A DNA stretch of 64,000 nt from Puniceicoccaceae bacterium (GCA_040830765.1 JBFOMH010000032.1:1-64000), one strand, 5' to 3'. Shown: positions 10,269-49,889, counted from the stretch's first letter. Numbers and translations are program-made. Notes: generated by a model not told the origin, from the sequence alone.

Positions 10269-10353
10269 TCCAACCTTCAAGATTGTCATGCCAGATACCG
10301 GAAGCAATCCATCCGGCATCCAAATTCATGGCTAGTGACTCTTTTCTCCCATC

Positions 10354-11028: not shown

Positions 11029-11037
11029 GACAGACCG

Positions 11038-17430: not shown

Positions 17431-17477
17431 TCGTCTCGAAGAGACGATATAAACTAGCCCGGGGATTCATCCCCGGG
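17431..17477. repeat. Paired inverted repeats (REP-like or terminator) between convergent genes
   Basis: TCGTCTC-GAA-GAGACGA at 17431-17447 and CCCGGGGAT-TC-ATCCCCGGG at 17458-17477. Confidence 0.5.
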
Positions 17478-17497: not shown

Positions 17498-18883
17498 TCA
17501 ATCCCCATCCACCCAGAGGATATTCCGGGTCATGTTCTTCGAAGCCGGTTTTTCCCCTGAGGGGGTAATGATCTTAACATTCTTGAGAAGAATATTTTCG
17601 GCGTTGGAAATCACCCCGGGAGCCGCCGCCTCAATGGTCACGTTTTCGAAAAAGATGTTGCGCACCGGAGCATCCTCCAGTCCGTAAATTTCCAGACCTT
17701 CGTCGGGGCAGGCTTCCACCTTCAGGTTGCGGATGGTGATGTTGCGGAAGAAGGGCAGGCCGTCCTCCGGGGGCACCGGTTCGGCCAGCTTGTGCCAGTG
17801 GTCCGGGTACTCCTTTCCTTCCTCAAGCACTTCCCCATAGCTGTAGGCGGGGAACCAATTGGACTCAAACTTGACCGGGTTCTTTACGTTGACCATCTCA
17901 TTGTCGAAAATATCGATGGCTTCGACGACGCCACCGCGCGTACGGGCTGACTTGAAGCGGATTCCGAAGATCGTTCCGATGGCCTTGTTGTTGTAGACCT
18001 TGACATTGCGGATGCTGCCGGAGGTTTCGCTGCCACAGGTGAACATGCCCATTCCCCGCCGAGCGATGTTATTGCGGATGATGATATTTTCCGTCGGCAG
18101 GTTGACCGCGATACCATCCGAGTCGCGACCCGACTTGAGGGTTATATTGTCGTCATTGCAGTCGATGTCACAGTTCTGGACGATGACATTCCTTGAGGAG
18201 TCCATGTTGACCCCGTCCGTGCTGGGCCCGAATCCTTCCTTCTCCGGGACACCGTCGATATTGTTGCGTATCGTCAGCCCATCAACGAGGACGTTCTGGG
18301 AGTAGACGATGTGACACGTCCAGAAGGCGGACAACTTCAGGTGCAGGTCGCGGATTTCCACATTTTCGCAGTTGTAGATCTGGATCAGCAGCGGACGTCC
18401 GACATCGTAGTCAACAACCCAGCGCAACCCCTTGGCGGAGTATTCCTCCTGCATCTCCCAATACCATGGCCAGAAGTATTCATTGCCCCGGCCATTGATG
18501 GTGCCCGTTCCGGAAAGCTTCACGTTGTGCCGGCCGCGCGCATTGATGAGGGCGGCTGGCCACTCCATTTCAATCCCTGCCACACGTGTCCAAAGCTTCG
18601 GGTAGTCCTCGGGGTCGATGGAACCGACCAGCTCCGCTCCCTCGGCGACATGAAACTCGACGTTGCTTTTCAGGAAGAGGGGGGAAACAAGGTACTTGCC
18701 CGGGCCGACTACCACCCGTCCGCCACCGTCCCGTGCGCAGACATCGATGGCACGCTGGATGTGCTCAGTCGTCAGGGTGGAACCGTCGGAGATGGCCCCG
18801 AAGTCAGAGACAGGGTAGTCCCGGGCGTTGAGGCCTGTGCAGCAAGTCATTAGGAGGATAGTAATAAATTGAAGGGATTTCAT
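17498..18883 (-). CDS. GH28 polygalacturonase/alpha-galacturonidase
   Basis: STDG, CNDDNITLKSGRD, CGSE, GIRFKS motifs; signal peptide. Confidence 0.9.
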   Translation of the reverse strand: MKSLQFITILLMTCCTGLNARDYPVSDFGAISDGSTLTTEHIQRAIDVCARDGGGRVVVGPGKYLVSPLFLKSNVEFHVAEGAELVGSIDPEDYPKLWTRVAGIEMEWPAALINARGRHNVKLSGTGTINGRGNEYFWPWYWEMQEEYSAKGLRWVVDYDVGRPLLIQIYNCENVEIRDLHLKLSAFWTCHIVYSQNVLVDGLTIRNNIDGVPEKEGFGPSTDGVNMDSSRNVIVQNCDIDCNDDNITLKSGRDSDGIAVNLPTENIIIRNNIARRGMGMFTCGSETSGSIRNVKVYNNKAIGTIFGIRFKSARTRGGVVEAIDIFDNEMVNVKNPVKFESNWFPAYSYGEVLEEGKEYPDHWHKLAEPVPPEDGLPFFRNITIRNLKVEACPDEGLEIYGLEDAPVRNIFFENVTIEAAAPGVISNAENILLKNVKIITPSGEKPASKNMTRNILWVDGD

Positions 18884-18898: not shown

Positions 18899-20026
18899 TT
18901 ACTGCGTTGAGAAGCGATGGATGGTTTTTGTGCGATAGGTCTCACCCGGATTGAGACGGGTTGAGGGAAAGTTTGCCTGGTTGGGTGAATCCGGAAAGTG
19001 CTGGGTCTCGAGACACAATCCGTAACGGAAGTGGTAGATCGCGCCTCCTTTGCCTTTCAGCGTCCCGTCGAGGAAATTGCCGCTGTAGAACTGGATGCCC
19101 GGTTCTTCTGTCCAGATTTCCATCTCCCTCCCGCTGTCGGGATCATAGAGGCGGGCGGCAAAGTTCAGCGTCGCCTCCTCGTCGGTGTTGAGCACCCAAT
19201 TGTGGTCGTAGCCACCTCCGAGGAGAAGCTGTTCAAAGTCGGATTCAATACGCGATCCAATGGGCCGTGCCATGCGGAAGTCCATTGGAGTGCCTTCCAC
19301 GGGTGCCAGTTCCCCGGTCGGGATAAGCCCGCTGTCCACTGGCGTGTAGCGGTCCGCATTGAGGGTCAGTTCATGGTCGAGGATGGTCCCGCGTCCCTGG
19401 CCGTGGAGATTGAAATAACTGTGATGGGTCAAATTGACGACGGTGGGCTGATCACTGGTGGCCTCGTAGGTAATGACAAATTGATTCTTGTCGTCGAGTG
19501 TGTAGACAACCGTGGCGGACAGGTTTCCGGGATAACCTTCTTCTCCATCCGGACTGGTATAGCGGAAGGTAACCGAGGCGGAATCTTCTGTGCTGGAGGG
19601 TTCGGATTGCCACAAGACCTTGTCAAATCCCTGGTTCCCCCCATGGAGGTGGTTTTCGTTGTTGTTGATCGTCAATTGGTAGGAAATTCCGTCGATCTCG
19701 AACTGTCCCTTGCCGATGCGGTTACCGTAGCGACCCACGACACAGCCAAAGTAAGGCGTTTCGATCAGGTAATCCTCCAGCTTCTCATAGCCGAGAACGA
19801 CATCACCCAGGTTGCCATCCCGGTCGGGGACATGCAGTTCGGTAACGATGGCCCCGTAGTCAGTGACCTTGAGGACCAGCCCGTTGCTGTTGGTCAGGGT
19901 GTAGAGGCGCGCTTCGCTGCCATCGGGAAGTTGACCATAGGTGGCTTCCTTGATGCTGGGCGCTGAATGAAGGAGCGTACCAATGAGGAGGCAGGAGATA
20001 CAGGCGAGTGGTTTGAGTGTATTCAT
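18899..20026 (-). CDS. galM: Aldose 1-epimerase (mutarotase) with signal peptide
   Basis: GRYGNRI, HLHGG, EEGYPG, NLTHHSYFNL, YDHN, CLETQHFPDSPN. Confidence 0.92.
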   Translation of the reverse strand: MNTLKPLACISCLLIGTLLHSAPSIKEATYGQLPDGSEARLYTLTNSNGLVLKVTDYGAIVTELHVPDRDGNLGDVVLGYEKLEDYLIETPYFGCVVGRYGNRIGKGQFEIDGISYQLTINNNENHLHGGNQGFDKVLWQSEPSSTEDSASVTFRYTSPDGEEGYPGNLSATVVYTLDDKNQFVITYEATSDQPTVVNLTHHSYFNLHGQGRGTILDHELTLNADRYTPVDSGLIPTGELAPVEGTPMDFRMARPIGSRIESDFEQLLLGGGYDHNWVLNTDEEATLNFAARLYDPDSGREMEIWTEEPGIQFYSGNFLDGTLKGKGGAIYHFRYGLCLETQHFPDSPNQANFPSTRLNPGETYRTKTIHRFSTQ

Positions 20027-21315
20027 GATTCAGTAGTGGATGATTCTTGTTTGGGAGGGTTGTTTTTCCAATAATTGGCCAGGATGGATCCGGAAATATT
20101 CATCCATGGACTAAAGACCGCCGAGGCCAGGCCGAGTGTTCCCAGCTTGCCCATCGAACCGGCAATGCCGGAGGCCATGCCACCATTTTGCAGGCCGACC
20201 TCCAGCGCCATCGCCCGGGCAGATTGCTGGTCGAGACCAAGCAGGCGGCTGAGCCAGAACCCAAGGACATATCCGGTGGCGTTGTGAAGGACCGAGGCAA
20301 GGAAGAGAAGGAGTCCTATCTGCAGCAGCTGTTCACGGCCGGCGGCAGTCGTCACGGTAGTGAAATAAACGATACCGGCCATTGAAATATACGGCATGAG
20401 GCTGTCGAGGCGCCGGATCAGCAGGGTAGCGCCGTGGTAGAGGAGCCCGAACAGGACGGCGCCGGCAAAGTAGCCCAGGATGGCGAGGGAGGCTGCAGCC
20501 TGCTCATTGAAGCTGGCCTTGATCCACGCAGCACCGCCCGCAAGGAGGATAACCAGATAGGCTGCAGAGAATCCCGCCAGCACATAGACATTGCGCCTGC
20601 CTTGACTACTGCAATGGCGCAGGAAGTCGTGCAGCAGTGCAGCCCCAATGGGGACCAGGACAATCTTGATGATCTGCAGCATCATCTTCAGGAAATCGAT
20701 CTCGATAAGCGTCCCGGCCAGCATCTTCATCAGGAAGGGGGTGCAGAAGGGCGCCAGCAAAGTGGCGCAGGCCGTAACCGTGATCGAGAGGACAAGGTTG
20801 GCCCGGGCCAGGTAGGTCATGACGTTCGAGGCGAGGCCGCTGGAACAGGAACCAATGAGAATGATACCCGCCGCGATCTCCGCCGGAAAACTGAAGACCT
20901 TTGTCAAAATCAAGCCGGAAACCGGCATGATGGAGAACTGGCACAGGAGGCCAACAAATACCCCTCTTGGTGAGCGGCTGATGCCCTTGAAATCCGTGGT
21001 GTGCATCTGCGTCCCCATGCCGAACATGACCGCCTGGACGACCAACAGGACCAGGACCGGGTTGCGCAAGTCAAATTCGCCCCAGCTCAGGAAGGCGGCA
21101 GGGTAGGCCAGTCCTGCGACAACAGCGGTGACGATCCAGGCGGTGTACTGGTATCCTTTCCATTTCTCAAGCGCTCCCAGTCCAAGGGAGAGGCAGACAC
21201 TGGATGCCAGCAGGGCCGCGTTCCACAGGGTCTGGTTCTGGAGGAACAGGCCGAGCAGGACTGTCAGGCCGGCAAGGGCGCTGGCATAGAGACAGGACTG
21301 GCGTAGAACCTTCAT
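20023..21315 (-). CDS. Bile acid:sodium symporter (BASS) family transporter
   Basis: MFGMG, QFSIMP, SSGLASNVMTYLA, EVGLQNGGMA; polytopic membrane protein. Confidence 0.85.
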   Translation of the reverse strand: MKVLRQSCLYASALAGLTVLLGLFLQNQTLWNAALLASSVCLSLGLGALEKWKGYQYTAWIVTAVVAGLAYPAAFLSWGEFDLRNPVLVLLVVQAVMFGMGTQMHTTDFKGISRSPRGVFVGLLCQFSIMPVSGLILTKVFSFPAEIAAGIILIGSCSSGLASNVMTYLARANLVLSITVTACATLLAPFCTPFLMKMLAGTLIEIDFLKMMLQIIKIVLVPIGAALLHDFLRHCSSQGRRNVYVLAGFSAAYLVILLAGGAAWIKASFNEQAAASLAILGYFAGAVLFGLLYHGATLLIRRLDSLMPYISMAGIVYFTTVTTAAGREQLLQIGLLLFLASVLHNATGYVLGFWLSRLLGLDQQSARAMALEVGLQNGGMASGIAGSMGKLGTLGLASAVFSPWMNISGSILANYWKNNPPKQESSTTES

Positions 21316-21980
21316 TTATCAGAATCGAGTTGGCCCGCCAGCCATTGCATGGCCAGGGCGGGACTGGATAAAATTGGAACCCGGCACTCCTCTGCCGGAA
21401 TGGTGTCCACGACACGAGCCATCGAGGCTTGGGCAAGGAGGATGACATCACAGTCCGCCATCAAGGCGAAGAGACCCTCACGGACGCTTGCGTCATGCGC
21501 TTCAGGATCGCCTGACATGAGTGCCTCAAACGCGCCTTCGCAGAGATGCGATTGAACGTCGATTTCCTTGAGGGCAGTCTTGGCTACCCGTTCGACGAGA
21601 TTCCTGGTCGGCTCAAGAGTGGTGGGCAGTGTGGCAATAACTCCAATCCGACTGCCGCTGGCAACGGCCTTTTCGGCCATCGCCTGATCCACCCGGTAGA
21701 CTGGCACGGAGACAAAGAGGCGCGAGGCCTCAACAGCTGCCCCTATGGAAGAACAGGTGACAAGGATCCGCGTGGCCCCGCTCCCTTCCGCCTGTCGCAC
21801 AAGTTCTGCCACCCGCCAGGCGACATCCGGGGTCAGGCATCCGCTGGCGATGACATCCTTGATAAGGCTGTCGTTGGCGATGTGGAAGGTTGCCACTCCT
21901 GGAAGGGAATTGCTGGCCAGGTCCGTGAATAAGGGAACCAGGGTGGCGGAGGTGTGGATAAAGGCTATTTTCTCTTCCAT
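21312..21980 (-). CDS. Asp/Glu/hydantoin racemase superfamily protein (single-Cys type)
   Basis: IAFIHTS, ILVTCSSIG, RVDQAM, IGVIATLPTTL; ILLAQASM has Gln at the second Cys position. Start MEEKIAF at 21980. Confidence 0.75.
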   Translation of the reverse strand: MEEKIAFIHTSATLVPLFTDLASNSLPGVATFHIANDSLIKDVIASGCLTPDVAWRVAELVRQAEGSGATRILVTCSSIGAAVEASRLFVSVPVYRVDQAMAEKAVASGSRIGVIATLPTTLEPTRNLVERVAKTALKEIDVQSHLCEGAFEALMSGDPEAHDASVREGLFALMADCDVILLAQASMARVVDTIPAEECRVPILSSPALAMQWLAGQLDSDK

Positions 21981-21982
21981 AA

Positions 21983-23386
21983 TTACAAGGTCAGGAGGTG
22001 GCATTGGCTATGGGATGCGGCTTTGATGAAGTAATCTGGCGTTCCGATTTGGCCGCCCTTGAAATTGATTTCTTTTCCATCAAGCTTAGATCCGGCGGCG
22101 TGTATGCGGCAAAACGGGGCCCCGCGGACAAAGGGCTGACTGACAGTCATGGCCTCAATGCCCATGGCGGCTGCGACATGTCCGGACGTGTCCCCACCGG
22201 CCACTACGATACGTTCCAAGCCCGTTTGCTCGATCACTTGATGTGCGATCGATCCCATGGCTGTCCCGAGAATACGCGGCACTTCAGACCCAGCTGCCTG
22301 CTCGCTGAAACGTTTCCGGATGGCTGCCCGGGTGTAACGGGTGCGTCCGTCATCCGGACCGGAATAGGTGTGCAGAATGGCACTCTTTTTGTCCCGCATC
22401 ATCCGGTTAATTCGTTCCACTGTGTTGGAAATGACCGCCTCTTCATTACCGGCAAATATCCCGACGGTATCAAGGGCCAGCTCGGCAAAGCCGGCCTTCG
22501 TCGCTTCCTGGATCTGATTGACAGTCACTGGCGAGCAACTGCCTGAGAGGACGAGGATTGGTTCATCGTAAGCCCCTTCTGCAGTAGCGGGTTCTGGCGG
22601 TGTCGGCCGGTTATCACGCCATGCATGAGCCAGGGCGTATTCCACAGCGGATGAACCGACCGAAAAAAGTGTCCCCTCTTCCGGCACATTGTCTTCCATC
22701 AAGAAACCGGGAATCGACAAGTCAGACTCGACAAATGCGTCGAAGAGAACCGCCTCGGTATAGCCGTCTGCGAGCAAGGTTGCCAGGGCCTCGGAGGCTT
22801 GAGCTCGCTCCATCCGGCAGTGGAAGATATCGAAAAGAGCCGTTTCCCAGCCAGCTTGTTCCTTCAATCTCAGGCGGATATCACTTTCCCGTGCCGGTGT
22901 CACTGGATGATGGGCCATCGACGGGTGCCGGTCCAACCGGTAGACAGGGCTGATATCCCCGGTACCAAGTCGCGCAAACAAGTGTCCGAAAATGCAATAC
23001 CGCCCGAGGTCAGGAACCCCGATCAGGACAGGGACAAACTTCGATTTGAAACAGGCAGCACCAACCCGCATGGCAACCCCAATATTGCCCGTTTCCGGGG
23101 ATGAATCAAAAGTTGAGCATACCTTGTAATGGCAGTGCCTTGGATTGATGGAGCGGATGAAATCAAAGACCGGCTCGAGGGTTTCCCGCATCCTGTCCGG
23201 TCCCATGGTCCGGGTTGTCCCTGCGATGCCAAACGCCTCGAGATCCTCAAATGCGGCTAGTTGCTCTTTGGTCGGGACATTCGGAAAAAGCGCTGTCCGG
23301 ATTCCGGCAAGATGTAATAATTCCAAGGCGTCCGTGGACCCGGTGAAGTCGTCCCCGTAGAACACAAGTTGGTTTCGCGTGGGCAT
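21983..23386 (-). CDS. Four-carbon acid sugar kinase (DUF1537), 3-oxo-isoapionate kinase OiaK-like
   Basis: YGDDFTGSTD, HYKVCSTFDSS, HPVTP, SGSCS, AGGDTSG, KGGQIG. ATG 23386 directly follows the RLP stop. Confidence 0.85.
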   Translation of the reverse strand: MPTRNQLVFYGDDFTGSTDALELLHLAGIRTALFPNVPTKEQLAAFEDLEAFGIAGTTRTMGPDRMRETLEPVFDFIRSINPRHCHYKVCSTFDSSPETGNIGVAMRVGAACFKSKFVPVLIGVPDLGRYCIFGHLFARLGTGDISPVYRLDRHPSMAHHPVTPARESDIRLRLKEQAGWETALFDIFHCRMERAQASEALATLLADGYTEAVLFDAFVESDLSIPGFLMEDNVPEEGTLFSVGSSAVEYALAHAWRDNRPTPPEPATAEGAYDEPILVLSGSCSPVTVNQIQEATKAGFAELALDTVGIFAGNEEAVISNTVERINRMMRDKKSAILHTYSGPDDGRTRYTRAAIRKRFSEQAAGSEVPRILGTAMGSIAHQVIEQTGLERIVVAGGDTSGHVAAAMGIEAMTVSQPFVRGAPFCRIHAAGSKLDGKEINFKGGQIGTPDYFIKAASHSQCHLLTL

Positions 23387-23387
23387 C

Positions 23388-24638
23388 TTAATTCTGGCTC
23401 CCTCCAAATTTTTCCATAGCCTTGCGCAGTTCAGGTTTTTCGGTTGCCGCCTCTTCCAGGGGAATACCGGCAATGGCACATTCCCAGGCCTGGCGAATGG
23501 CCGTCACGCCTCCAGCCGGACCGTCCGGGTGGGCCATGATTCCCCCTCCAGCAAGGTAAAGGAGGTCTGTGGTCTGAGTCAGCTTGTAGGTTTCCGGGGC
23601 CTGGCCGCCCCATTGACCCGAGGAAATGACTGGCATGACCGGTCTCAGGTTATGCCAGTCCTTACGGCACTCAGTGATGGATGCGACCACGGACTCGTCG
23701 GGTTCCCAGAACTTGTTCGCGATACCATTGACATGCAGTTGGTCGATTCCGGCCAGGCGCCAGAACTTCTGGTAGGCGGCAAAACCCATGCCTGTTGCCG
23801 GTTGACGGTTGAGCATACCCCAGCCATTCCGGTGACCGTGGAGAACGAAACGGCCCTCGTCGGCTATTGCCTTGACGGCGGCAAAGCCGAGGGGATTCAC
23901 GCTGAGCATGGCGCAGGTCCCGCCAAGGGATTCCAGATGGTCACAGTTACGCCGCATGACATCCAGTTCATCCGTGATGTTGGCGGCGTAGATAACCTTC
24001 TTGCCCGTTTCATCGAAGTGCCGCCGGATTTCCCCGAGGATGGCTCGTGTCCGTTCCTTGAAAGGCGAGTGGGGAGGATTGCCCATGAGTTCGTCGTCCT
24101 TTATGAAATCAATCCCCGCCGGCAACAACTGCCGTACCAAGGCAGCAGTGGCTTCTGGTGAAAGGCCCACACTGGGCTTGATGATGGTGCCGACGAGTGG
24201 GCCTTCCTGGCGTCCTGCTGCGGCAAGTGTTCCCGCAATTCCGTGGGAAGGACCCTTGAACCGGGCGCTTACCTCTGCTGGCAAATCAAAATCCAGCAAC
24301 CGGATACCGGAGAGTTGTGCCAGCTCATAAAGGTTCCCCTGCAGGGTGGAGAGGAGGACAGGAATATTGTCACCCACATTTTCCGCGGGCCAGGAAATGC
24401 GCACATGGGCCCGGTTGTAAGTCCCTGCTGCGGGCCGGGAACCGGGCAGGGAAGGTTCATTGACCGAATCAAGGACCTCCACTTCCTCCACCCGGGCGGC
24501 GAACTTCTCTTTCAGGGAAGTCGTCTCACCCGGCACCTCGACGAAGGTCCCGCTCGATTGCTCGCCGGCAATCGATTCAGCGGCCTTCTTCGGCTCCAGT
24601 GGGGTCTCAATCCAGTAAGTGGCTGATATGCGGTTCAT
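23388..24638 (-). CDS. RuBisCO-like protein (form IV), OiaT/OiaX-like
   Basis: AGEQSSGTF, GTIIKPSVGL, GIDFIKDDE (carbamyl-Lys motif), HGHRNGWG, SSGQW, GGGIMAHP. Start MNRISATY at 24638. Confidence 0.9.
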   Translation of the reverse strand: MNRISATYWIETPLEPKKAAESIAGEQSSGTFVEVPGETTSLKEKFAARVEEVEVLDSVNEPSLPGSRPAAGTYNRAHVRISWPAENVGDNIPVLLSTLQGNLYELAQLSGIRLLDFDLPAEVSARFKGPSHGIAGTLAAAGRQEGPLVGTIIKPSVGLSPEATAALVRQLLPAGIDFIKDDELMGNPPHSPFKERTRAILGEIRRHFDETGKKVIYAANITDELDVMRRNCDHLESLGGTCAMLSVNPLGFAAVKAIADEGRFVLHGHRNGWGMLNRQPATGMGFAAYQKFWRLAGIDQLHVNGIANKFWEPDESVVASITECRKDWHNLRPVMPVISSGQWGGQAPETYKLTQTTDLLYLAGGGIMAHPDGPAGGVTAIRQAWECAIAGIPLEEAATEKPELRKAMEKFGGSQN

Positions 24639-27402
24639 GGTTCTTGTCCGGATGGTCGGGTTCGCAGGGAATGCGGAAAGTGTAATGCCCGGATGGCAAA
24701 TGGACTGTGAGGCCTCCATCCGCTTGCTCAGTTACCTTACCTTCAGCGTCATCCTTGAGCGGCTGCCCCGACTCGGTTATGAGCTCTGCTGTTCCCCAAG
24801 GGAAACAAACGTCCGCCGAGCTGTTGGCCGGGATCTCAACGGACCACTCGAGCAGGGTGTCCTCTACATACCTCCAGTGACTACGGATGCGTCCATAGGG
24901 AGAGGTGTATTCTCCCTCGGCCCATTGCAGGGAGGGATGAGGATGCGGTTTTAAAATAAAGGTCTGGAAACCGGGTTCGTTCGGTTTGTAGTTAATACCC
25001 GCTACATGGCTGTAGAGCCATTCCCCGATGGAGCCGAGTGAGTAATGGTTGAAGGAATTCATGTGGGCATCGAGGAAGCCATCCTCCTCAGTCCAGGCAT
25101 TCCAGCGCTCCCAGATGGTAGTGGCCCCGTGCCGGACAGGATAGAGCCACGACGGATAGTCATCCTTTAGCAGCAGCTCGTAGGCAAGGTCGGCATGGCC
25201 ATAGTCGGTTAGGATCGGGTTGAGGAAACGGATTCCGATGAATCCCGTACTGAGGTGCTTATCGAGCGAACGGATATTGTCGACAAGGTGGCCAACGGCC
25301 TTCGCCCGGAGTTCCGCCGGGAGGAGGTCCATGGCCAAGGCAAGCAGGTAAGCGGTCTGGGTATCGACCTCAAGCGATCCATCCGGCCGAACGTAGGCTT
25401 CCTGGAAGGCATCCCGGACGCGGGTAAAGGTCTGCTCGAAGCGTACGGCTTCCTCTTCCCGTCCGAGTTCCCTGGCCATTTCCGCCATCTTGCTGGCATC
25501 ATCGGCCCAAAAGGCCGTAGCGAGCAGATTCTTCAGCGGCGAATGGGTCCGGAACGTTGTATCCGATGGTATGCTGAGCCAGTCCCCGTAGTTGTTGGCT
25601 AGTTCGTTGATCCGCAGGCCGTCCGGGTTGGTCCGTTCAATGTAATCGAGCCAGGCGGTCATGGCATTCCAGTGGCGCTCGATGATGCGGCGGTCACCAT
25701 AGACCTTCCAGATGGTCCACGGGATGATAACCCCGGCATCCGCCCAACCGGGACTTCCGCCAAGGCCATCGAGGCCAATGAAATTGCCATCCTCCGGAAG
25801 GCGGGGAGCGGTGTCGGGAAAGATGCCATTCTCCGTCTGGGCATCCTCAACATCGACCATCCATTTGGTAAAGAACGCGGCCACATCCATGTTGAAGGCA
25901 GCTGTGCGGATAAAGACTTGGGCATCTCCCATCCATCCAAGGCGTTCGTCGCGCTGGGGACAATCGGTCGGGACACTGAGGAAATTATCGATCTGCGACC
26001 ACAGGCCGTTGAGCCAGAGTCTGTTGACCCCCTCATGTGAGCAGGAAAAGCTGCCGCTTTGCGGCGTGGCCGACTGGACCACGCAGGCAGTCAGGTCGCC
26101 GCTCGAGGGTGCCTTGGAGAGACCGGAAATTTCGAAATACTGGAACCCGTGAAAAGTAAAGGACGGTTCCCAGGTTGCAGGACCCTGCCCATCACAGATG
26201 TACGTATCGGTCGCCCTGGCCCGGCGAAGATTTTCCGTGAAGAGGCTACCGTCGGCCTTGAGGCGTTCCCCGTGGCGGAGGACGATTGACTTACCAGCCG
26301 GCTCATCGACCCGTATCCGCATCCAGCCGGCGATGTTTTGACCGAGGTCACAGAGCCAGGTATCTTCACCGGTTTGGCGGATGGAAACGGGCTCCAGTTC
26401 CTTGATCACCCGCACTGGCTGCGATTGCTGGGCGACCAGAGGCACATCTGGTTGGTCGACTTCCAGAACCGGCAGCCAGTCCTGTTCATCGAACTGTGGC
26501 TGGTCCCACCCCTCCACCTGGCGGCGGTTGTCGCAGGTCTCGCCCATCATGAAGTCAGAGAAGAGGATGGGGCCGGTGTTACAGCGCCAGGATGAGTCGG
26601 TGCTAACGGTCGTAACCGTGCCATCATCCATTTCCAGCTCCAGCTGGCAGATAAAGCTGTTGGTGAGTCCATACTGGCCCCGCGTTTCCTGCCAGCCGAC
26701 ATAACCGCTGAACCAACCATCACCAAGAATGGCTGCGAGCACATTCTCTCCTTCCTGCAGCAGGGAGGTAACGTCGAATGTCCGGTAATGGATCCGTTTG
26801 CGGTAATCGGTCCACTCGGGCAGGAAGCGGTCCTCTGTTACTTCCGTCCTATTGATCCGGAGTCGCAGCAAGCCGCGGCCACTCGCATAGAGGATTGCCC
26901 GCTTCGGTCTGGCTGATGCAGTGATATTTTTCCGGAAGTAACCCGGGCTGGAACAGGTTGTCCAGTCGGATGGACTTGCCTCCTTGTCCCGGGCAATTGC
27001 CTCCGGATTCAATCCGATCCAATCCGTATTCCAGTCAGATGTCTCCAGCAGGCCGATGCTAAAGAAGGCGGGCCCGGAAGCGACTTCCAACCCAGTCTCG
27101 TCCCTGACGACAACCCTCCAATAAACGTTGGCTCGCGAGGTCAGCGCCTTTCCCTCGCAGGCAATCTGGGTGCTCTGGCTACCTTCGATCCAGCCGCTGT
27201 CCCAGATGTCAGTTTCCCCGGATTCAAGTAACCCTGCCTCGCTGGCGGCGAGGATACGATAGGCTACCTGTCGCTTGCCCCGCTGGTCGGACTGCATCCG
27301 CCATGCCAGGCGCGGTTGGACCGTGTCAATGCCCAACGGGTTGACAAGATATTCGCAGGTCAGATCCGAGAGGGTAAAGGATTGCTGGGAGTCGGTAGCC
27401 AT
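24607..27402 (-). CDS. GH78 alpha-L-rhamnosidase, no signal peptide
   Basis: LTCEYLVNPLG, DLGQN, FTFHGFQY, PTDCPQRDERLGWMGD, GATTIWERW, MNSFNHY. Confidence 0.93.
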   Translation of the reverse strand: MATDSQQSFTLSDLTCEYLVNPLGIDTVQPRLAWRMQSDQRGKRQVAYRILAASEAGLLESGETDIWDSGWIEGSQSTQIACEGKALTSRANVYWRVVVRDETGLEVASGPAFFSIGLLETSDWNTDWIGLNPEAIARDKEASPSDWTTCSSPGYFRKNITASARPKRAILYASGRGLLRLRINRTEVTEDRFLPEWTDYRKRIHYRTFDVTSLLQEGENVLAAILGDGWFSGYVGWQETRGQYGLTNSFICQLELEMDDGTVTTVSTDSSWRCNTGPILFSDFMMGETCDNRRQVEGWDQPQFDEQDWLPVLEVDQPDVPLVAQQSQPVRVIKELEPVSIRQTGEDTWLCDLGQNIAGWMRIRVDEPAGKSIVLRHGERLKADGSLFTENLRRARATDTYICDGQGPATWEPSFTFHGFQYFEISGLSKAPSSGDLTACVVQSATPQSGSFSCSHEGVNRLWLNGLWSQIDNFLSVPTDCPQRDERLGWMGDAQVFIRTAAFNMDVAAFFTKWMVDVEDAQTENGIFPDTAPRLPEDGNFIGLDGLGGSPGWADAGVIIPWTIWKVYGDRRIIERHWNAMTAWLDYIERTNPDGLRINELANNYGDWLSIPSDTTFRTHSPLKNLLATAFWADDASKMAEMARELGREEEAVRFEQTFTRVRDAFQEAYVRPDGSLEVDTQTAYLLALAMDLLPAELRAKAVGHLVDNIRSLDKHLSTGFIGIRFLNPILTDYGHADLAYELLLKDDYPSWLYPVRHGATTIWERWNAWTEEDGFLDAHMNSFNHYSLGSIGEWLYSHVAGINYKPNEPGFQTFILKPHPHPSLQWAEGEYTSPYGRIRSHWRYVEDTLLEWSVEIPANSSADVCFPWGTAELITESGQPLKDDAEGKVTEQADGGLTVHLPSGHYTFRIPCEPDHPDKNHEPHISHLLD

Positions 27403-27423
27403 GGGTCCGGAAGCGGGGACTTC

Positions 27424-27606
27424 CTAATTGTCGTCAAGACTGGTACTGTGCATCCAGAAAGGAGCGGAGGAAAACCAGGCAACCATGCCAATCAGCATCA
27501 GGGTATACTGGAGGGAGTTGTCGATAACGCCGATGAGGACAAGCGCCCCGGGAATCAAGGTCAGGGCAAGACCGGTAAATGAGATAAGTTTCAATATGTT
27601 ATTCAT
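27424..27606 (-). CDS. Small two-helix membrane protein
   Basis: 60 aa with two hydrophobic segments; fills the gap between the permease and GH78 on the same strand. Confidence 0.65.
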   Translation of the reverse strand: MNNILKLISFTGLALTLIPGALVLIGVIDNSLQYTLMLIGMVAWFSSAPFWMHSTSLDDN

Positions 27607-27620
27607 GGGAATGTAATTTA

Positions 27621-29081
27621 TTAGGAGTTAGTCGATGCAGGATGACGACGCTGTTGCAGCCAGGAGAAGAAGAGATACAGGGAGACGGCGAGGATCCATT
27701 CCGGGCCAACCATGAACAGCAGGTCTACCTTGATGGCAGCCAGCCAGTCCGGTTGCCAGGGAGCGACCAGCTTGTTCATCCAAGCGTAGTGGTCCTTGGC
27801 GTACATGAAGAATGAAAATCCGAACGAGATGATCCAGGCCAGCAGGGCAGGCCAGCTTAACAGCTTGCCTGTTTTCTCGATGTAGTTACTGACCATGCCA
27901 AGGCGGGGAAGGATCCAGACATCAATGAAGATACAGGCTCCCAGAGGCATGAAGAAAAGGCCGTAGAAGCCTACGATCCGGTCGAGGTTCCGGTTGACGT
28001 CGGGAATGCAGGCCGTGATGACCATGAAGGCCCCGGCGGCAAAGGTTACCTTCCAGCGCTGCCAGTTGGGTGTCGCCACCTGAATGGCGAGGCCGGCCCG
28101 GTAGAGGGTCGGATTGGCGGTTGTCCACCCGGCAATGACAACACAGACCGCACCGGCGACGCCCGCCCCAAGCAGGGCGATTTCACCGGGGGTTGTATTC
28201 CCCATGGCGGCGGCGCAGAGGATGGCGGAAGCGATCCAGGCAAGAAAGTGTCCGATGTACATGCCGAAGGCGGAAGCAAAGCCACTGGTCCACTTTCTGG
28301 CGTAGCGGAAAATGGTGACATCCGACATTCCGATGTGCTGGGTGGCATTGCAAAGCCAGGCAAAACCCATCACATGCCAGAAGGTGTACTTGGAGAATCC
28401 GGGTAACGGTTCCCCGGTAAAGATCCGTTCCTTGAAGGCCGGCCAGATTTCCCCGAACGAATGGACGTCCAGCATCGGGAGGACAGCCATGCCGGCGGAG
28501 AGAAAGACCAGTGCCATCCAGGGGGCGCAAATCTTGGAGAACTGGGCCAGTTTCTCGAAACCGAGGACGGCCAGGATGGCGATGACGGAACCGACCACCA
28601 GCGCCAGCAGCATCCATGGCACGCTGGGGAACATGTCCTGCGGCCCCGGATTCTGGATGCCGGGAAAGACCAGGGAAACGGCGGTTACCGAGACGTTGAC
28701 CATGGCACCAGCCAGCAGGCAGAGGACGATGGCATAAAAGACGCTATAGGCGACGGTAATGTAGGGACCACACATCTTGCGCAGCTGCCAGTAGATGGTG
28801 AGGCGGGTCCTGACCGCAACCGGGGCACAGAGGAGCGCCCAACTGAGGACGGCAAGAAGGTTGCCGACAAGCAAGCCTCCGAGGAAGTCGGTCGCCGTTA
28901 CCCCGTGGGCCAGCATGAGCGGACCGAGGACAAATTCCGTTCCGGCAACGTGCTCGCCGGCGAACATGGCGATAAAGGTCTTGTGTCCATGTAGCTTTTT
29001 TCCGGCAACAGGTTCCCGGTCGTATTCGTAGAGGGCGTCCAGGCGCTCTACGATTGTGTGTTGGGATTCATCATGACTCAT
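27621..29081 (-). CDS. NCS1 (purine-cytosine permease) family transporter
   Basis: About 12 TM helices; FAGEHVAGTEF, GWTTANPTLY. Confidence 0.75.
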   Translation of the reverse strand: MSHDESQHTIVERLDALYEYDREPVAGKKLHGHKTFIAMFAGEHVAGTEFVLGPLMLAHGVTATDFLGGLLVGNLLAVLSWALLCAPVAVRTRLTIYWQLRKMCGPYITVAYSVFYAIVLCLLAGAMVNVSVTAVSLVFPGIQNPGPQDMFPSVPWMLLALVVGSVIAILAVLGFEKLAQFSKICAPWMALVFLSAGMAVLPMLDVHSFGEIWPAFKERIFTGEPLPGFSKYTFWHVMGFAWLCNATQHIGMSDVTIFRYARKWTSGFASAFGMYIGHFLAWIASAILCAAAMGNTTPGEIALLGAGVAGAVCVVIAGWTTANPTLYRAGLAIQVATPNWQRWKVTFAAGAFMVITACIPDVNRNLDRIVGFYGLFFMPLGACIFIDVWILPRLGMVSNYIEKTGKLLSWPALLAWIISFGFSFFMYAKDHYAWMNKLVAPWQPDWLAAIKVDLLFMVGPEWILAVSLYLFFSWLQQRRHPASTNS

Positions 29082-29126
29082 AGGGGTGTTTTTTGGTGTT
29101 ATTGTTTATGAGGTACCGGAACGGAT

Positions 29127-31190
29127 TCAGCGGAGTGGTATCCAGACGGTCATGTCGTGGTCGCCGCGGTTTCCCCATGCATAATAGGGTATCCAGCGGG
29201 TATCGATTGATTTCAGCTTCTGCGGGCGCAGTGGGCGGTAAAGTTGATTCTCGTCCCACTGGGAGCGGTCGATGACCGTGGCAGGCAGCTCGATGGAGAG
29301 CATCTCCGCATCCTCGACCTTGACCGGCTTGAGCCCGGCGGAGCCGGTGGAGTCCACCTCGAGGGCGACGTCGAGAATATTGACGCCCTCCGGCAGGTCG
29401 ACGGATTCAAGGCAATAGACCAGGGGACCGTACTTGAGGGCTACCTGGTTGGCTGTTTCCTCGACAAGGGGATTGGCCTCCCAAAGCTCCGGCTGCAGCT
29501 GCAGTTGCAGGCTGATGGAGTCGCCCGGTTGCCACTGGCGTTCAATGGAGTGGTAGGTGCCGGGGAGCAATGCCTCCCCGCAGTCTTCCCCGTTGACGGA
29601 GAGGGAGGCGCCTCCGGTGGCCAGCCATCCGGGAATTCTCAGCTTGATGGTTGCCGGATGGTCCGGGGCTTCCTTGATGGAGAGTTTGATGGAACCGTTC
29701 CAGGGATAGCCCGTTTCCTGAATCAGATGCAAGGGGCTGCCGTCGGGCAGGACAGTATCCAGTTCGCTGGGACCGTAGAGGTTCACCCAGACGGTGTCTT
29801 CCGACAGGCTGTAGACGTAGTTTTGGACCTGTGCCAGCGTCCGGATGACATTGGGAGGGCAGCAGAAACTGCGGGGAATGTTGGGCTCACGCGTGCGCGA
29901 CCAGCGCAGGGGCCAGTCAAAGGCGTCTACCTTCTGAAGGGCGTTGACGTAGAAGTAGTGGGTGCCATCGAGGCTGATTCCCGGCAGAACTCCATTATAA
30001 AGCGAGTTCTCGAACAAGTCGGCATAGCGGGCTTCGCCTGTCAGCATCAGCATGCGCCAGTTCCACATGGCGTAGCCGATGGTGGCGCAGGTCTCGTTGT
30101 AGGCCGTCTTGTTTGGTAGTTGATAATCGATACCATAAGCCTGGTGGGTGGTCTTGATGCCTTCGTGGTCCTTGGTGCCGTACGGGGAGGCACCATCGTA
30201 GAGGGCCCCGGTCATGCCGGTGATATAAAGCTTCTGCCCGGCGACGTCGTCGGCGATTGTCTCCAGCGTCTCGAGAATCGTGTCATCACCGGACTCCGTG
30301 TAGACATCCGCCGCCCCGGCATAGAGATAGTTTGCGCGGACGGCATGGCCGACAGCCTCCTCCATTTCACGGAACGGTACACGGTCCTGGTTGTGGTCGG
30401 AACCGTCATCGACAAGGTCCCGGATCTCGATGAGCTGCTTTGCCAGTTCGAGGTAACGGGGCTCCCGCGTGGTGCGGTACAGCTCAACAACTCCCATGTA
30501 GTGGGACGGGCAAATGGCATTTCTGGCTAATTCCGGGGAGGAGGTCTCGTAGAAATTGTAGAGGTAGTCCGCCGCCTTTCGAGCCAGTTGCAGCATGCTG
30601 GTCTTGCCCGTGGCCCGGTAATGGACGCAGGCCGTCGTCATGAGGTGCCCCATGTTGTAGGTCTCGAAGTGGTAGCGGTCGAGAAACTGGTTGGCCCGGG
30701 TCTGTCCCTGTCGTTCCGGAATGATGTTCTGGGTATGAAGATACCCGTCTTCCCGCTGGGCGAGGCCGACCACATGAATGATCCGGTCCATGAGGCTGTC
30801 GATCTCCGGATCCCGGGTTATGGCATAGACACTGGCCATGCCCTCGAACCACTTGAGAAAGTCACCATCATTAAAGGGAGGGCCATGGAACTTGCCATCC
30901 CGGCCATCATCAAGTCCGGCGGCGAGGAGGAAGTTGGCCCAGGCATGGCTTCCATGCTCGTCCTGGAATATTTCCCACATGTAAGGAATCATGGTGTCCT
31001 GGAGGACCTGAAAGCGGTCACCCCAGAGGCCGCCGGTCCAGTGGGCGTCATCCAGCTCCACCATCCGCATGACAGCCATGGGCGAATGGGTGGTATCGAT
31101 GAGGCAGTTTTGGCCGGCCTGAAGGCCTGTGGAGAGGACCACCGGAAAGGTTAGAAGAAGTGTAACTCGATGCAGAATAGATTTGGTCAT
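29127..31190 (-). CDS. GH127, aceric acid hydrolase (BT1003-like)
   Basis: GHAVRANYLY, YNETCA, FCCPPN (GH127 Zn/Cys site); HFETYNMGH and NAICPSHYMG match my recall of BT1003-type enzymes; signal peptide. Confidence 0.8.
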   Translation of the reverse strand: MTKSILHRVTLLLTFPVVLSTGLQAGQNCLIDTTHSPMAVMRMVELDDAHWTGGLWGDRFQVLQDTMIPYMWEIFQDEHGSHAWANFLLAAGLDDGRDGKFHGPPFNDGDFLKWFEGMASVYAITRDPEIDSLMDRIIHVVGLAQREDGYLHTQNIIPERQGQTRANQFLDRYHFETYNMGHLMTTACVHYRATGKTSMLQLARKAADYLYNFYETSSPELARNAICPSHYMGVVELYRTTREPRYLELAKQLIEIRDLVDDGSDHNQDRVPFREMEEAVGHAVRANYLYAGAADVYTESGDDTILETLETIADDVAGQKLYITGMTGALYDGASPYGTKDHEGIKTTHQAYGIDYQLPNKTAYNETCATIGYAMWNWRMLMLTGEARYADLFENSLYNGVLPGISLDGTHYFYVNALQKVDAFDWPLRWSRTREPNIPRSFCCPPNVIRTLAQVQNYVYSLSEDTVWVNLYGPSELDTVLPDGSPLHLIQETGYPWNGSIKLSIKEAPDHPATIKLRIPGWLATGGASLSVNGEDCGEALLPGTYHSIERQWQPGDSISLQLQLQPELWEANPLVEETANQVALKYGPLVYCLESVDLPEGVNILDVALEVDSTGSAGLKPVKVEDAEMLSIELPATVIDRSQWDENQLYRPLRPQKLKSIDTRWIPYYAWGNRGDHDMTVWIPLR

Positions 31191-32685: not shown

Positions 32686-32704
32686 GGGGTATGTCAGGAT
32701 GGAC

Positions 32705-33709
32705 TCATGTCTTGGGGATCAGCTTCATGGCTGCCTGGGAAAGGCCTTCCATGGATATGCCATAGTGACGGAATATATCGGCCTGGCTTCCGGTTACGGT
32801 GTATTCGTCAGGAATGCCAATACGTTGGAACGGCTTGTGGACACCGGCTTCCATGAACAAGCCAGCGCAGGCTTCCCCGAGTCCACCGTTGACCATGTGT
32901 TCCTCAACGGTGACCACGGCGCTGCAGGTGCGGGCGCCTTCCAGAATGGCCTCCGTGTCGAGGGGCTTGATGGTCGGAAGACTGAGGACAGATGCCTCGA
33001 TTCCGGCCTCCTTGTGCAGTAGCTCGGCTGCCAGCCAGGCATGGATGACCGTTTCGCCGGTGGCAATAAAGAGGATGTCCTTGCCGCTGCGCAGAGGCCG
33101 CGCTTGGCCGATTTGGAAAGGCTTATTCCCGGGAAGATCATATTGGGCCGCTTTCCCAAAGCGCAGATAGACAGGACTTTCCAGGTTGACTGCCTGCCTG
33201 ACCGCTTCGGCGGTCTCGAAGTTGTCCGCGGGGACGAGGATGGTGAGATTGTTGATAGCCCGCAAGGCCGCCAAGTCATGCAGGGAATGGTGAGTCGAAC
33301 CGAGGGCACCATAGCTGACACCGGCACTGATGCCAACGAGCGTTACGGGGTTGTCTGAGTAGGCGACGTCGTTCTTGATCTGTTCCAGCGCTCGTGCCGA
33401 GAGGAAGCAGGCGGGTGAGACTGCCAGGGTTTTCTTGCCTGTTGAGGCAAGGCCGGCTGCGACGCCGACGAGGTTTTGTTCGGCAATGCCCATCTCGACA
33501 ATCTGGTCCGGCAGAGCTTCCCCGAAGGGCTTCAGTTTGCCTGAACCGCGGGAGTCACTGGTCACGACCAGCACATCGCGATCGGCTCTTGCCAACTCGA
33601 GGGCGGTCTCAGCAAAAACCTCGAGGTTGGGCCGTCCGAGCTTGAGGCCAGTCTCCTTAATCAGGCTGGCTGCCGCTTCGCTGAACAGGGATGGGGCGGG
33701 TGCGCTCAT
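32705..33709 (-). CDS. aptB: Transketolase C-terminal subunit, probable apulose-4-phosphate transketolase B
   Basis: SDSRGS, GIAEQN, GSTHHSLHD, PVYLR, EEH...GGLG. Confidence 0.75.
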   Translation of the reverse strand: MSAPAPSLFSEAAASLIKETGLKLGRPNLEVFAETALELARADRDVLVVTSDSRGSGKLKPFGEALPDQIVEMGIAEQNLVGVAAGLASTGKKTLAVSPACFLSARALEQIKNDVAYSDNPVTLVGISAGVSYGALGSTHHSLHDLAALRAINNLTILVPADNFETAEAVRQAVNLESPVYLRFGKAAQYDLPGNKPFQIGQARPLRSGKDILFIATGETVIHAWLAAELLHKEAGIEASVLSLPTIKPLDTEAILEGARTCSAVVTVEEHMVNGGLGEACAGLFMEAGVHKPFQRIGIPDEYTVTGSQADIFRHYGISMEGLSQAAMKLIPKT

Positions 33710-34548: not shown

Positions 34549-34556
34549 CGGTTTGT

Positions 34557-47059: not shown

Positions 47060-47062
47060 GAT

Positions 47063-49880: not shown

Positions 49881-49889
49881 ATAGCCATA

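Follow-up and report, generated by a model that had tools for sequence, protein, structure and literature searches.

Gene content and organization of the locus

The stretch of DNA analysed here, 64,000 nt from a Puniceicoccaceae bacterium (JBFOMH010000032.1:1-64000; referred to below as the window, whose numbering is used throughout), encodes a predicted aceric acid hydrolase in the same gene cluster as a RuBisCO-like protein, an acid-sugar kinase and a racemase-like protein, which raises the question of whether this cluster specifies the catabolism of L-aceric acid (3-C-carboxy-5-deoxy-L-xylose), a rare sugar acid of the plant pectin rhamnogalacturonan-II (RG-II). No published aceric acid catabolism was found in the searchable literature.

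A first-pass annotation of the window had described a tight run of seven genes on the minus strand, all of which were recovered by ORF calling and by Pfam and NCBIfam searches on that strand and at the same coordinates. The tight clustering was confirmed but its extent was not, as the run comprises 13 minus-strand genes (35975-17498), including an aldose 1-epimerase and a GH28 downstream and an FGGY kinase, a split transketolase and a FucI-like isomerase upstream, which had been omitted. The run opens with the FucI-like isomerase gene (34557..35975; Pfam Fucose_iso_C, 5.7e-27), whose product may isomerize D-apiose in the transketolase route, followed by genes for the N-terminal, TPP-binding subunit (33706..34587; Transketolase_N, 7.7e-45) and the C-terminal subunit (32705..33709; Transket_pyr and Transketolase_C) of transketolase, which overlap by 4 nt, and for an FGGY-family sugar kinase (31207..32685; FGGY_N/FGGY_C). 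The latter, a candidate apulose kinase, falls below every NCBIfam equivalog cut-off and exceeds that of the PRK00047 glycerol-kinase subfamily model (525.7 bits, cut-off 498).

The central part of the run encodes a GH127 that is predicted to be exported and of the BT1003-like, aceric acid hydrolase type (29127..31190), a 486-aa purine-cytosine-permease-like membrane protein (27621..29081) and a GH78 α-L-rhamnosidase with five Pfam rhamnosidase domains (24607..27402). The membrane protein has no Pfam or NCBIfam match and resembles cytosine/purine permease clusters of the ESM Atlas (score 0.98). These genes are followed by those for a 416-aa RuBisCO-like protein of the OiaT/OiaX family (RLP, P0001; 23388..24638; RuBisCO_large, PF00016, 5.5e-73, and PF02788, 2.5e-08), an OiaK-like DUF1537 acid-sugar kinase (21983..23386; SBD_N and NBD_C; PF07005, 2.6e-46, and PF17042, 9.7e-30), an Asp/Glu-racemase-fold protein (designated here as RACE; 21312..21980) and a BASS/SBF transporter proposed to import aceric acid (20023..21315; SBF, PF01758, 8.9e-33). 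The kinase ATG, read from the sequence, lies 1 nt past the RLP stop codon. The final two genes encode the aldose 1-epimerase, or mutarotase (18899..20026; Aldose_epim, 2.2e-96), which overlaps the BASS gene by 4 nt, and GH28 (17498..18883; Glyco_hydro_28). A terminator-like hairpin with an 8-bp stem and seven G-C pairs is located directly 3' of the GH28 gene (17458..17477, minus strand), in a region where the count of terminator-like sites is no higher than in shuffled sequences.

Possible apiose and apionate functions in the window

The isomerase, the FGGY kinase and the split transketolase domains are encoded side by side, as judged from Pfam matches (the libraries searched contain no specific family model), and this module, presumably serving the D-apiose transketolase route, apparently equips the organism for apiose. 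Both the transketolase route for D-apiose and the oxidative route for D-apionate via ApnO, OiaK and OiaT were reportedly described by Carter in 2018. The oxidative D-apionate routes, including that via ApnO, OiaK and OiaT, are summarized in PMC13753588, which, together with PMC6302742, provides some of the background on OiaK, OiaT, OiaX and the transketolase route. ApnL and ApnO are missing from the window, as the first-pass annotation had stated: the ApnL-like and ApnO-like (c30) proteins of related loci yielded no BLASTP match within the 64 kb (E<=1e-10, >=50% query coverage), and an NCBIfam search of the window gave no ApnL or ApnO call. An ApnO gene may nonetheless be encoded in another part of this genome.

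RACE- and ApnO-type loci

For a comparative survey, 80 related loci (the top 80 out of at least 579 relatives) were analysed together with the window, yielding 81 loci in a sample that is skewed to the window's own type and contains many related Bacteroidota with common synteny. Of these, 59, the window included, belong to a RACE type, 14 to an apionate (ApnO) type and eight remained unclassified. RACE-type loci combine the RLP, the DUF1537 kinase and RACE, usually with BASS, and were found in Bacteroidota (36), Planctomycetota (nine), Verrucomicrobiota (nine), Chloroflexota, Acidobacteriota and Pseudomonadota (one each). In 52 of the 59, RACE immediately follows the kinase, with BASS as the next gene in 44; BASS is present in 50/59 RACE-type loci, compared with 0/14 ApnO-type loci.

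The c30 gene was identified in 12 of the 14 ApnO-type loci and in none of the 59 RACE-type loci, and in all 12 loci that carry it, it occupies the slot of RACE. ApnL was similarly confined to ApnO-type loci (8/14 versus 0/59). RACE and c30 were not found together in any locus, and the RACE and ApnO contexts are mutually exclusive. Homologs of the NCS1-like permease and of the mutarotase were present in 1/81 (the window only) and 2/81 loci, respectively, and both were rejected as cassette members. A single ORF spanning RACE and BASS in locus L060 was rejected as a fusion, because the adjacent kinase looks split and indel errors are an equally likely cause. A plasmid copy of the cassette occurs in Rufibacter, for which the RefSeq annotation provides family names only.

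GH127 and the link to aceric acid release

The window GH127 scored 942.5 bits against the NCBIfam model for aceric acid hydrolase (NF049879, AcerHdlse) across profile positions 3-657 of 657, which is 7.5 bits below the cut-off of 950, as is also observed for other members from Planctomycetota and Verrucomicrobiota (875-943 bits). Among the 28 GH127 proteins of the surveyed loci, 22 exceeded the cut-off and four further proteins scored 875-943 bits. The best PDB match of the window GH127 was 5mqo (693 bits), which we take to be BT1003, followed by 4qjy (378 bits) and 3wkw (261 bits), and its N-terminus is signal-peptide-like. In this comparison the enzyme is closer to BT1003 than to the HypBA1-type β-L-arabinofuranosidases (261 bits), and the first-pass proposal that it is BT1003-like was not refuted.

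Besides GH127, GH78 and GH28, the window encodes GH141, GH2-malectin, BT1020-like, GH43-like and DUF3826 proteins, all of them families that also occur, with GH127 of the BT1003 type, in the RG-II loci of Bacteroides thetaiotaomicron. These utilization loci include the aceric acid hydrolase BT1003 and, in the accessible part of PMC13501991, the system is described up to monosaccharide release, with no downstream aceric acid enzymes found described there.

The first-pass annotation had suggested comparing the co-occurrence of this clade with BT1003-type GH127 and with apnO, and the outcome favours its proposal. GH127 (>=45% identity) was found in 29/59 RACE-type, 0/14 ApnO-type and 1/8 unclassified loci, whereas neither ApnL nor ApnO is linked to any RACE-type locus. 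The GH127 gene lies <=200 nt upstream of the RLP gene in 21 loci, which belong to Bacteroidota and Chloroflexota; in the window the two are 4.4 kb apart, with the permease and GH78 genes intervening. The association between GH127 and context type was significant when relatedness was ignored (Fisher p 4.5e-4), while an independent-pairs test, underpowered with only 3-5 usable pairs, returned p = 1. Other RG-II-type CAZymes were present in 48/59 RACE-type and 0/14 ApnO-type loci, and since RACE-type cassettes are generally located in RG-II clusters, the proximity of GH127 could mark the cluster rather than the substrate. Judged by gene content, the tie between the RACE-type cassette and aceric acid release appears strong.

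The racemase-fold protein RACE

RACE matches Pfam PF01177 (Asp_Glu_race, 5e-21), and its AlphaFold2 model (pLDDT 96, pTM 0.89) represents a two-domain α/β fold, for which Foldseek reported glutamate and aspartate racemases at a probability of 1.00 and TM scores of 0.70-0.76. By sequence, the only PDB match was a weak one to a hydantoin racemase (E 0.0023). The first catalytic Cys of RACE is C84 (motif TCSS), which matches the Cys of 2eq5, a hydantoin racemase, in the alignment, while the position of the second, assigned by motif and secondary-structure symmetry and not by structural superposition, is occupied by Gln (Q192; motif LAQASM). RACE hence lacks the complete Cys pair of two-base racemases, in which each domain contributes one Cys at a helix start. 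C84 and Q192 are conserved in 144 and 143 of 150 family representatives, respectively, and Q192 in 38/38 orthologs, which are 44-62% identical.

The single retained Cys is indicative of a reaction other than two-base racemization. Such one-thiol members of the superfamily, for example arylmalonate decarboxylase (AMDase), are presumably represented by 3eis and 2vlb, both of which were among the Foldseek matches of RACE. AMDase shares the fold and likewise keeps one of the two catalytic Cys residues, although it is the second that is kept in AMDase and the first in RACE; the two proteins are <20% identical, and the context of RACE is one of sugar-acid catabolism. We know of no aldose-ketose isomerase with the Asp/Glu-racemase fold. 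Clustering at 50% identity divides the RACE family, as delimited at E<=1e-30, into about 945 clusters, and homologs of 40-46% identity occur in unrelated contexts without an RLP or kinase, so that the reaction is not fixed by family membership.

The RLP, kinase and transporter

Sequence alignment revealed that the RLP motifs KDDE, HGHR, HVNG..K and GGG are invariant in 30 aligned relatives. The invariant residues (K180-D181-D182-E183, H267/H269-R270, H302, K309 and G364-G366) presumably include the counterparts of RuBisCO K201, D203, E204, H294, H327 and K334, with the carbamylated Lys in KDDE, whereas Ser occupies the K177-equivalent position. The RLP scored 438 bits against PDB 3nwr and 474 bits against the NCBIfam OiaX model (NF042437; profile positions 1-412 of 412), the cut-off of which (700) was not reached by this protein or by any of 71 related locus RLPs (71/71, 424-543 bits). 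OiaX as best match is not discriminating, because a model for OiaT seems to be missing from NCBIfam.

RLPs of the cassette share about 50-57% identity with their ApnO-type counterparts. Two clades separated by context had been expected; this was rejected by the phylogeny, in which RACE- and ApnO-type RLPs are interleaved (single clade rejected, AU test p 0.003). Only four alignment columns separate the two types, and essentially no specificity residues in the alignment are common to six scattered RACE-type RLPs and the main clade. Relatives 79-81% identical to the ApnO-type RLP of locus L077 carry the JGI name 3-oxoisoapionate-4-phosphate transcarboxylase/hydrolase (OiaT), and the window RLP appears to resemble OiaT more than OiaX. 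The new RLP reaction put forward in the first-pass annotation is not supported in that form: given the absence of a clean split by context, the RLP step is probably known chemistry, and the RLP most likely performs an OiaT-type reaction on a homologous substrate, i.e. the methyl homologue.

The best model for the kinase was OiaK (NF042436; 372.5 bits, cut-off 700 not reached), compared with 171 bits for OtnK. For BASS, the nearest NCBIfam model was the pantoate/ketopantoate transporter PanS (199.8 bits, cut-off 400), and its score was also below the TIGR00841 cut-off.

A proposed aceric acid pathway and its alternatives

We propose, with a probability of roughly 0.6, that aceric acid is imported, isomerized to a ketose by RACE, phosphorylated and cleaved to 3-phosphoglycerate and L-lactate, BASS, RACE, the kinase and the RLP forming a self-contained cytoplasmic route. 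Comparative genomics establishes the synteny and gene content of the cassette, the families of its proteins, the Cys/Gln pattern of the RACE active site and the mutual exclusion of RACE and ApnO contexts, while the individual steps are proposals. Aceric acid would be freed from RG-II in the periplasm by the exported GH127, and its carboxylate taken in by BASS. RACE would then shift the C2 proton via an enediolate, converting the aldose into the 2-ketose HOOC-C(OH)(CHOH-CH3)-CO-CH2OH, the methyl homologue of 3-oxo-isoapionate. The OiaK-like kinase would phosphorylate the new primary hydroxyl, after which the OiaT-like RLP would decarboxylate, recarboxylate and hydrolyse the product, and with 3-phosphoglycerate and L-lactate as end products no extra dedicated enzyme would be needed.

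The aldose-ketose isomerization, already envisaged in the first-pass annotation, is chemically sound and is also required ahead of the kinase, because aceric acid gains a primary hydroxyl for phosphorylation only once isomerized. As the cassette contains no oxidoreductase, its substrate must enter as an acid, and RACE in place of the NAD-dependent ApnO would be explained by aceric acid already having a carboxyl group and needing isomerization only. To our knowledge, aceric acid is the only RG-II acid with the tertiary α-hydroxy acid core of 3-oxo-isoapionate.

A variant of this route, in which an OiaX-like RLP would release CO2 and a 5-deoxy-L-pentulose 1-phosphate, to be converted to DHAP and acetaldehyde by an aldolase encoded elsewhere, is considered unlikely. 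The β-keto acid substrate would readily decarboxylate and OiaX is the only specific model matched, yet all these RLPs score far below its cut-off, the relatives of ApnO-type members are named OiaT and the genes that recur around RACE-type loci do not include a class II aldolase. More improbable still is a cassette feeding 3-oxo-isoapionate 4-phosphate from an apiose-derived or other acid, where RACE would isomerize a 3-C-carboxy-tetrose and GH127 would be a coincidental feature of RG-II clusters. The near-indistinguishable conserved columns of the interleaved RLPs are consistent with such a role, as is the presence of the FucI-like gene with split transketolase and FGGY genes in 7-10 of the 59 RACE-type loci. 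Conversely, a GH140 apiosidase is found in only 3/59 of these loci, compared with 29/59 for GH127, the latter directly adjoins the RLP in 21 loci, and apiose appears to be served already by the adjacent module in the window; in addition, we know of no natural 3-C-carboxy-tetrose.

A similarly low probability is assigned to another plant acid as the substrate (Dha, Kdo, a uronate product or an undescribed branched acid), with RACE acting as an epimerase or tautomerase. The RACE family does have members in diverse sugar- and amino-acid-related contexts, and BASS proteins, here with PanS as the nearest model, carry many small acids; however, the ~50% identity of the OiaK- and OiaT-like enzymes to those of the apionate route suggests a branched 3-oxo acid of closely similar structure, and the adjacency of GH127 is specific. 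For Dha, a separate PdxA/DUF1537/aldolase/Fe-ADH module in the window is the better fit, and a search of plasmid sequences with its DUF1537 kinase at 1e-30 gave no match, which leaves the Dha idea without comparative support.

Comparison with known pathways and significance

The proposed aceric acid route shares the kinase family (DUF1537), the RLP family and the gene order RLP-kinase-X with the ApnO-OiaK-OiaT route. The latter relies on ApnO, an oxidoisomerase of KARI-like fold that depends on NAD and metal, where the cassette has the cofactor-free, racemase-fold RACE; it includes ApnL and an apiose ABC transporter, whereas the cassette lacks both and has BASS and GH127; and the CH2OH group that yields glycolate would be replaced by CH(OH)CH3, yielding lactate. 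A further parallel is the tetronate pathway via OtnI, OtnK and OtnC, reportedly described by Zhang et al. in 2016. Its logic, likewise summarized in PMC13753588, is shared, in that an α-hydroxycarbonyl acid is isomerized to a 3-oxo acid, phosphorylated by a DUF1537 kinase and broken down as a β-keto acid. The enzymes differ, as the isomerase OtnI is a TIM barrel and the decarboxylase OtnC has the class II aldolase fold, compared with a racemase-fold isomerase candidate and an RLP in the cassette.

Few plant glycans are as complex as RG-II, and while its depolymerization is well mapped, the fate of its rarest sugars was not found described. With confidence falling somewhat short of even odds, we suggest that the cassette represents the first aceric acid pathway, distributed over at least six phyla, in which a cofactor-free racemase-fold isomerase with one Cys, and Gln in place of the second, acts ahead of an RLP that generates 3-phosphoglycerate and L-lactate by splitting a branched six-carbon keto-acid phosphate. 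If true, the aceric acid route would fill in a missing part of how communities in soil, water and the gut cycle pectin carbon, provide a function for a widespread and uncharacterized branch of the Asp/Glu racemase superfamily and widen the substrate range of RuBisCO-like proteins, and RACE, the kinase, the RLP and BASS would constitute a marker set that predicts which bacteria consume aceric acid.

Organization of the RLP-encoding gene run

The window, with a GC content of ~57%, was shown by its Pfam and NCBIfam gene content to be almost wholly an RG-II (rhamnogalacturonan-II) degradation region, encompassing CAZyme-type genes (GH2, GH28, GH43-like, GH78, GH127, GH141, BT1020-like and DUF3826) as well as genes encoding a TonB-dependent receptor, pectate-lyase-like proteins and several transporters. 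ORF calls and Pfam and NCBIfam matches confirmed the position and minus-strand orientation of all seven genes that the first-pass annotation had placed in a single run, although the extent assigned to that run did not hold: it comprises 13 co-directional genes (35975 to 17498) with intergenic gaps of at most 218 nt and many 4-nt overlaps. On the minus strand, these genes encode, in order, a FucI-like isomerase, the N and C subunits of a transketolase, an FGGY kinase, GH127, a purine-cytosine-permease-like protein, GH78, the RuBisCO-like protein (RLP; 23388..24638), a DUF1537 kinase, the Asp/Glu-racemase-fold protein RACE (21312..21980), a BASS transporter, an aldose 1-epimerase and GH28. A terminator-like hairpin is located 3' of the run (17477-17458), in a region without enrichment of such sites. 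For RLP, the 416-aa form was chosen; the ATG of the DUF1537 kinase lies 1 nt past the RLP stop codon and is preceded by GGAGGG. The second Met is the most likely start of RACE, giving a 4-nt overlap with the kinase gene; RACE orthologues begin there.

The first four genes of the run (31207-35975, minus strand), directly upstream of GH127, resemble a D-apiose transketolase route, and such FucI-like, split transketolase and FGGY genes were observed near RLP in 7-10 of 59 RACE-type loci (described below). With this candidate apiose module adjacent, an apionate function of the RLP cassette would be redundant in the window. Comparison with related loci bore out the earlier statement that no ApnL- or ApnO-like protein is encoded within the 64 kb.

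Two proteins without a Pfam match, encoded at 11038-13275 and 14239-15783, scored weakly (109 and 160 bits, respectively; cut-off 840) on the PelZ pectate lyase model and clustered (cluster c16) with RLP-cassette neighbours in six other loci. Furthermore, on the minus strand at 42142-51044, a BT1020-like gene is followed by genes for a PdxA-like protein and a second, D-threonate-kinase-like DUF1537 kinase, with further genes encoding a DHDPS-family aldolase, an Fe-alcohol dehydrogenase, an SSF transporter and a LacI regulator. The BT1020-like family includes the GH143 DHA hydrolase, and this predicted gene content fits a Dha breakdown route. Aldol cleavage would yield pyruvate and a C4 aldehyde-acid, which would be reduced to D-threonate (stereochemistry worked out in this analysis), phosphorylated and converted to DHAP by PdxA2-type oxidative decarboxylation. 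No paper describing such a route was found in the literature outside subscription journals, and no homologue of the second DUF1537 kinase was found on plasmids.

Two genomic contexts of the RLP family

Loci were fetched from GTDB species genomes with an alignment of 30 RLP relatives and analysed by ORF calling, neighbour clustering and annotation of cluster representatives. Of at least 579 confirmed relatives, the best 80 were retained, which biases the sample towards loci of the window's type. Among the resulting 81 loci, two contexts were identified, i.e. RACE type (59, including the window) and ApnO type (14), the remaining eight being uninformative, mostly owing to short contigs. RACE-type loci display the order RLP, kinase, RACE, with RACE immediately after the kinase in 52/59; BASS is present in 50/59 and follows RACE in 44. 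In ApnO-type loci, the slot after the kinase is occupied by an ApnO-like protein (c30) in all 12 loci that carry it. This protein of ~290 aa contains a PGDH_C domain and matches PDB 5t57 (295 bits), and nine of the 12 contain the exact NAD-binding hexapeptide of Aurantimonas ApnO, as given in section 8 of PMC13753588. ApnO-type loci also contain sugar ABC transporter genes, the GH140 apiosidase (4/14) and, in 8/14 cases, ApnL-like genes (ApnL model scores of 286-345 bits; cut-off 750).

Several further features were observed among these loci. In Oleiharenicola sp. Vm1 (L060, 12442-14586), RACE and BASS form a single 714-aa ORF downstream of an apparently frame-split kinase, reflecting either a natural isomerase-transporter fusion or assembly indel errors. 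In Sphingobacteriaceae and Cytophagales, a block that recurs upstream of GH127/RLP (L005-L007, L013, L021, L037 and L047), adjoining GH106 and GH127, encodes a solute-binding protein, a Gfo/Idh/MocA oxidoreductase, a MaoC-like hydratase and an MFS transporter, to which some loci add two family III CoA-transferases; this block may be involved in the use of a different RG-II sugar. Another Gfo/Idh/MocA oxidoreductase (cluster c7; 54-100% identity among loci), absent from the window, accompanies 14/59 RACE-type cassettes (L002, L004, L015, L024, L026, L029, L032, L033, L039, L040, L042, L048, L050 and L057), often together with an SSF transporter between GH141 and GH78.

Association of the cassette with aceric acid release

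The window GH127, whose N-terminus resembles a signal peptide, matched the NCBIfam aceric acid hydrolase model over its full length (942.5 bits; cut-off 950) and scored 693 bits against PDB 5mqo, which we take to be BT1003, versus 261 bits against HypBA1-type arabinofuranosidases. A 2026 review (PMC13501991) confirms that BT1003 is the GH127 aceric acid hydrolase. Counting GH127s at least 45% identical to that of the window as aceric-acid-hydrolase type, the enzyme was present in 29/59 RACE-type, 0/14 ApnO-type and 1/8 unclassified loci, and RACE and c30 did not co-occur in any of the 81 loci. The pathway-level idea of the first-pass annotation, which had proposed this co-occurrence test, thus survived it. 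The model cut-off was reached by 22 of 28 locus GH127s, with four more at 875-943 bits, one partial sequence at 357 bits and one without a match.

GH127 lies at most 200 nt upstream of RLP in 21 loci; it adjoins RLP in Bacteroidota and one Chloroflexota genome (L078), and is several kb away in Verrucomicrobiota and Planctomycetota. Other RG-II-type CAZymes were found in 48/59 RACE-type versus 0/14 ApnO-type loci. Some proximity of GH127 is expected simply because RACE-type cassettes sit inside RG-II clusters. Two observations argue for a specific link: GH127 clearly outnumbers every other immediate neighbour, and the GH140 apiosidase is rare there (3/59). A naive Fisher test of GH127 against context gave p = 4.5e-4 but ignored the relatedness of the loci, and an independent-pairs test on the RLP tree gave p = 1 with just 3-5 usable pairs. 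In a Cytophagales MAG (L009, about 7956-11239), GH127 adjoins RLP with a BT1020-like gene next, and no kinase, RACE or BASS was found in the following 10 kb.

RLP and kinase families across the two contexts

The best NCBIfam models for the window RLP and kinase were OiaX (474 bits) and OiaK (372.5 bits), respectively, both with a cut-off of 700. All 71 locus RLPs tested scored 424-543 bits on the OiaX model, indicating that none is an OiaX equivalog. The sampled family is OiaT-like, since relatives (79-81% identical) of the Xanthobacteraceae ApnO-type RLP of L077 are named 3-oxoisoapionate-4-phosphate transcarboxylase/hydrolase by JGI, a reaction that the Xanthobacter autotrophicus RLP performs according to a review (PMC6302742).

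A quick LG+G4 tree of RLPs contained a 58-row clade of 53 RACE-type and five uninformative rows. The other 23 rows comprised one ApnO-type RLP (L079) on a long branch beside this clade and a mixed part of 22 rows (13 ApnO-type, six RACE-type and three uninformative). Monophyly of the RACE-type RLPs, a group named after the tree had been seen, was rejected by the AU test (p 0.003). The main RACE-type clade differs from ApnO-type RLPs at just four columns; at these positions, the six scattered RACE-type rows mostly share the state of the ApnO-type RLPs. The kinase tree likewise displayed clustered contexts without a clean split. These trees and columns leave room for both contexts feeding one shared RLP substrate. 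We read them as indicating that the RACE and ApnO pathways can exchange their RLP and kinase, that the RLP chemistry is identical in both, and that the transporter and the entry enzyme, either RACE or ApnO, determine the substrate. With OiaT-like RLPs and contexts mixed in the tree, the new RLP reaction initially proposed is reduced to known chemistry acting on a homologous substrate.

A proposed route for aceric acid

BASS carriers transport carboxylates, and the cassette lacks an oxidoreductase, so its substrate would have to be an acid already on import. OiaK-like kinases require a primary hydroxyl beside a ketone, which aceric acid, CHO-CHOH-C(OH)(COOH)-CHOH-CH3, acquires only upon C1/C2 isomerisation. 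This step would give HOOC-C(OH)(CHOH-CH3)-CO-CH2OH, which is identical to 3-oxo-isoapionate except for CH(OH)CH3 in place of CH2OH. The OiaK-like kinase would phosphorylate this ketose, and OiaT-type transcarboxylation and hydrolysis of the phosphate would yield 3-phosphoglycerate and lactate, the latter expected to be L-lactate given the L-xylo configuration. Such a route would fit the four-gene cassette, as no extra dedicated enzyme is needed; no recurrent aldolase was found among the neighbour clusters of the surveyed loci. Based on gene content and context, we consider it rather probable (about 60%) that the cassette acts on aceric acid.

Outside subscription journals, the titles and abstract openings found described no aceric acid catabolism, and the 25 top-ranked matches on aceric acid, BT1003 and related subjects were exclusively reviews and plant papers; no literature linking aceric acid to RuBisCO-like proteins was found, nor, by title, anything relevant on RLPs with a DUF1537 kinase or racemase, including in RG-II. 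In the available part of a 2026 preprint about tools for RG-II, the apiose enzymes are mentioned and no aceric acid route is.

RACE as the candidate entry enzyme

RACE matched only the generic Pfam Asp_Glu_race family and no NCBIfam model. Its orthologues (n=59) are 44-62% identical, and the motifs HTS, TCSS, RVD, ATLxTTLxPT, GAF, HD, LAQASMAR and SP are invariant in 38 aligned sequences. The AlphaFold2 model (pLDDT 96, pTM 0.89) was closest to glutamate and aspartate racemases among solved folds (TM 0.70-0.76, identity 13-20%). C84, which aligns with a Cys of the hydantoin racemase 2eq5, represents the retained first catalytic Cys, and motif and secondary-structure symmetry suggests that the corresponding second-domain position is occupied by Gln (Q192). 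Among 150 family representatives (the best of 945 clusters, E<=1e-30), C84 was present in 144 and Q192 in 143. As a predicted one-base enzyme, RACE cannot be a classical two-base racemase and would be suited to a suprafacial 1,2-proton shift via an enediolate, as in aldose-ketose isomerases.

Homologues (40-46% identical) without RLP or kinase were also observed on three plasmids (L083-L085): in an amino-acid-type setting with FAD oxidoreductases and an ornithine cyclodeaminase as neighbours in Rhizobium sp. TAL182; after a sugar ABC transporter in Caballeronia sp. M1242; and flanked by GH38 and a class II FBP aldolase in Deinococcus sp. QL22. Given these other contexts, the RACE family probably encompasses several sugar-related specificities. 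The new enzymology of the proposed aceric acid route is likely to reside in RACE.
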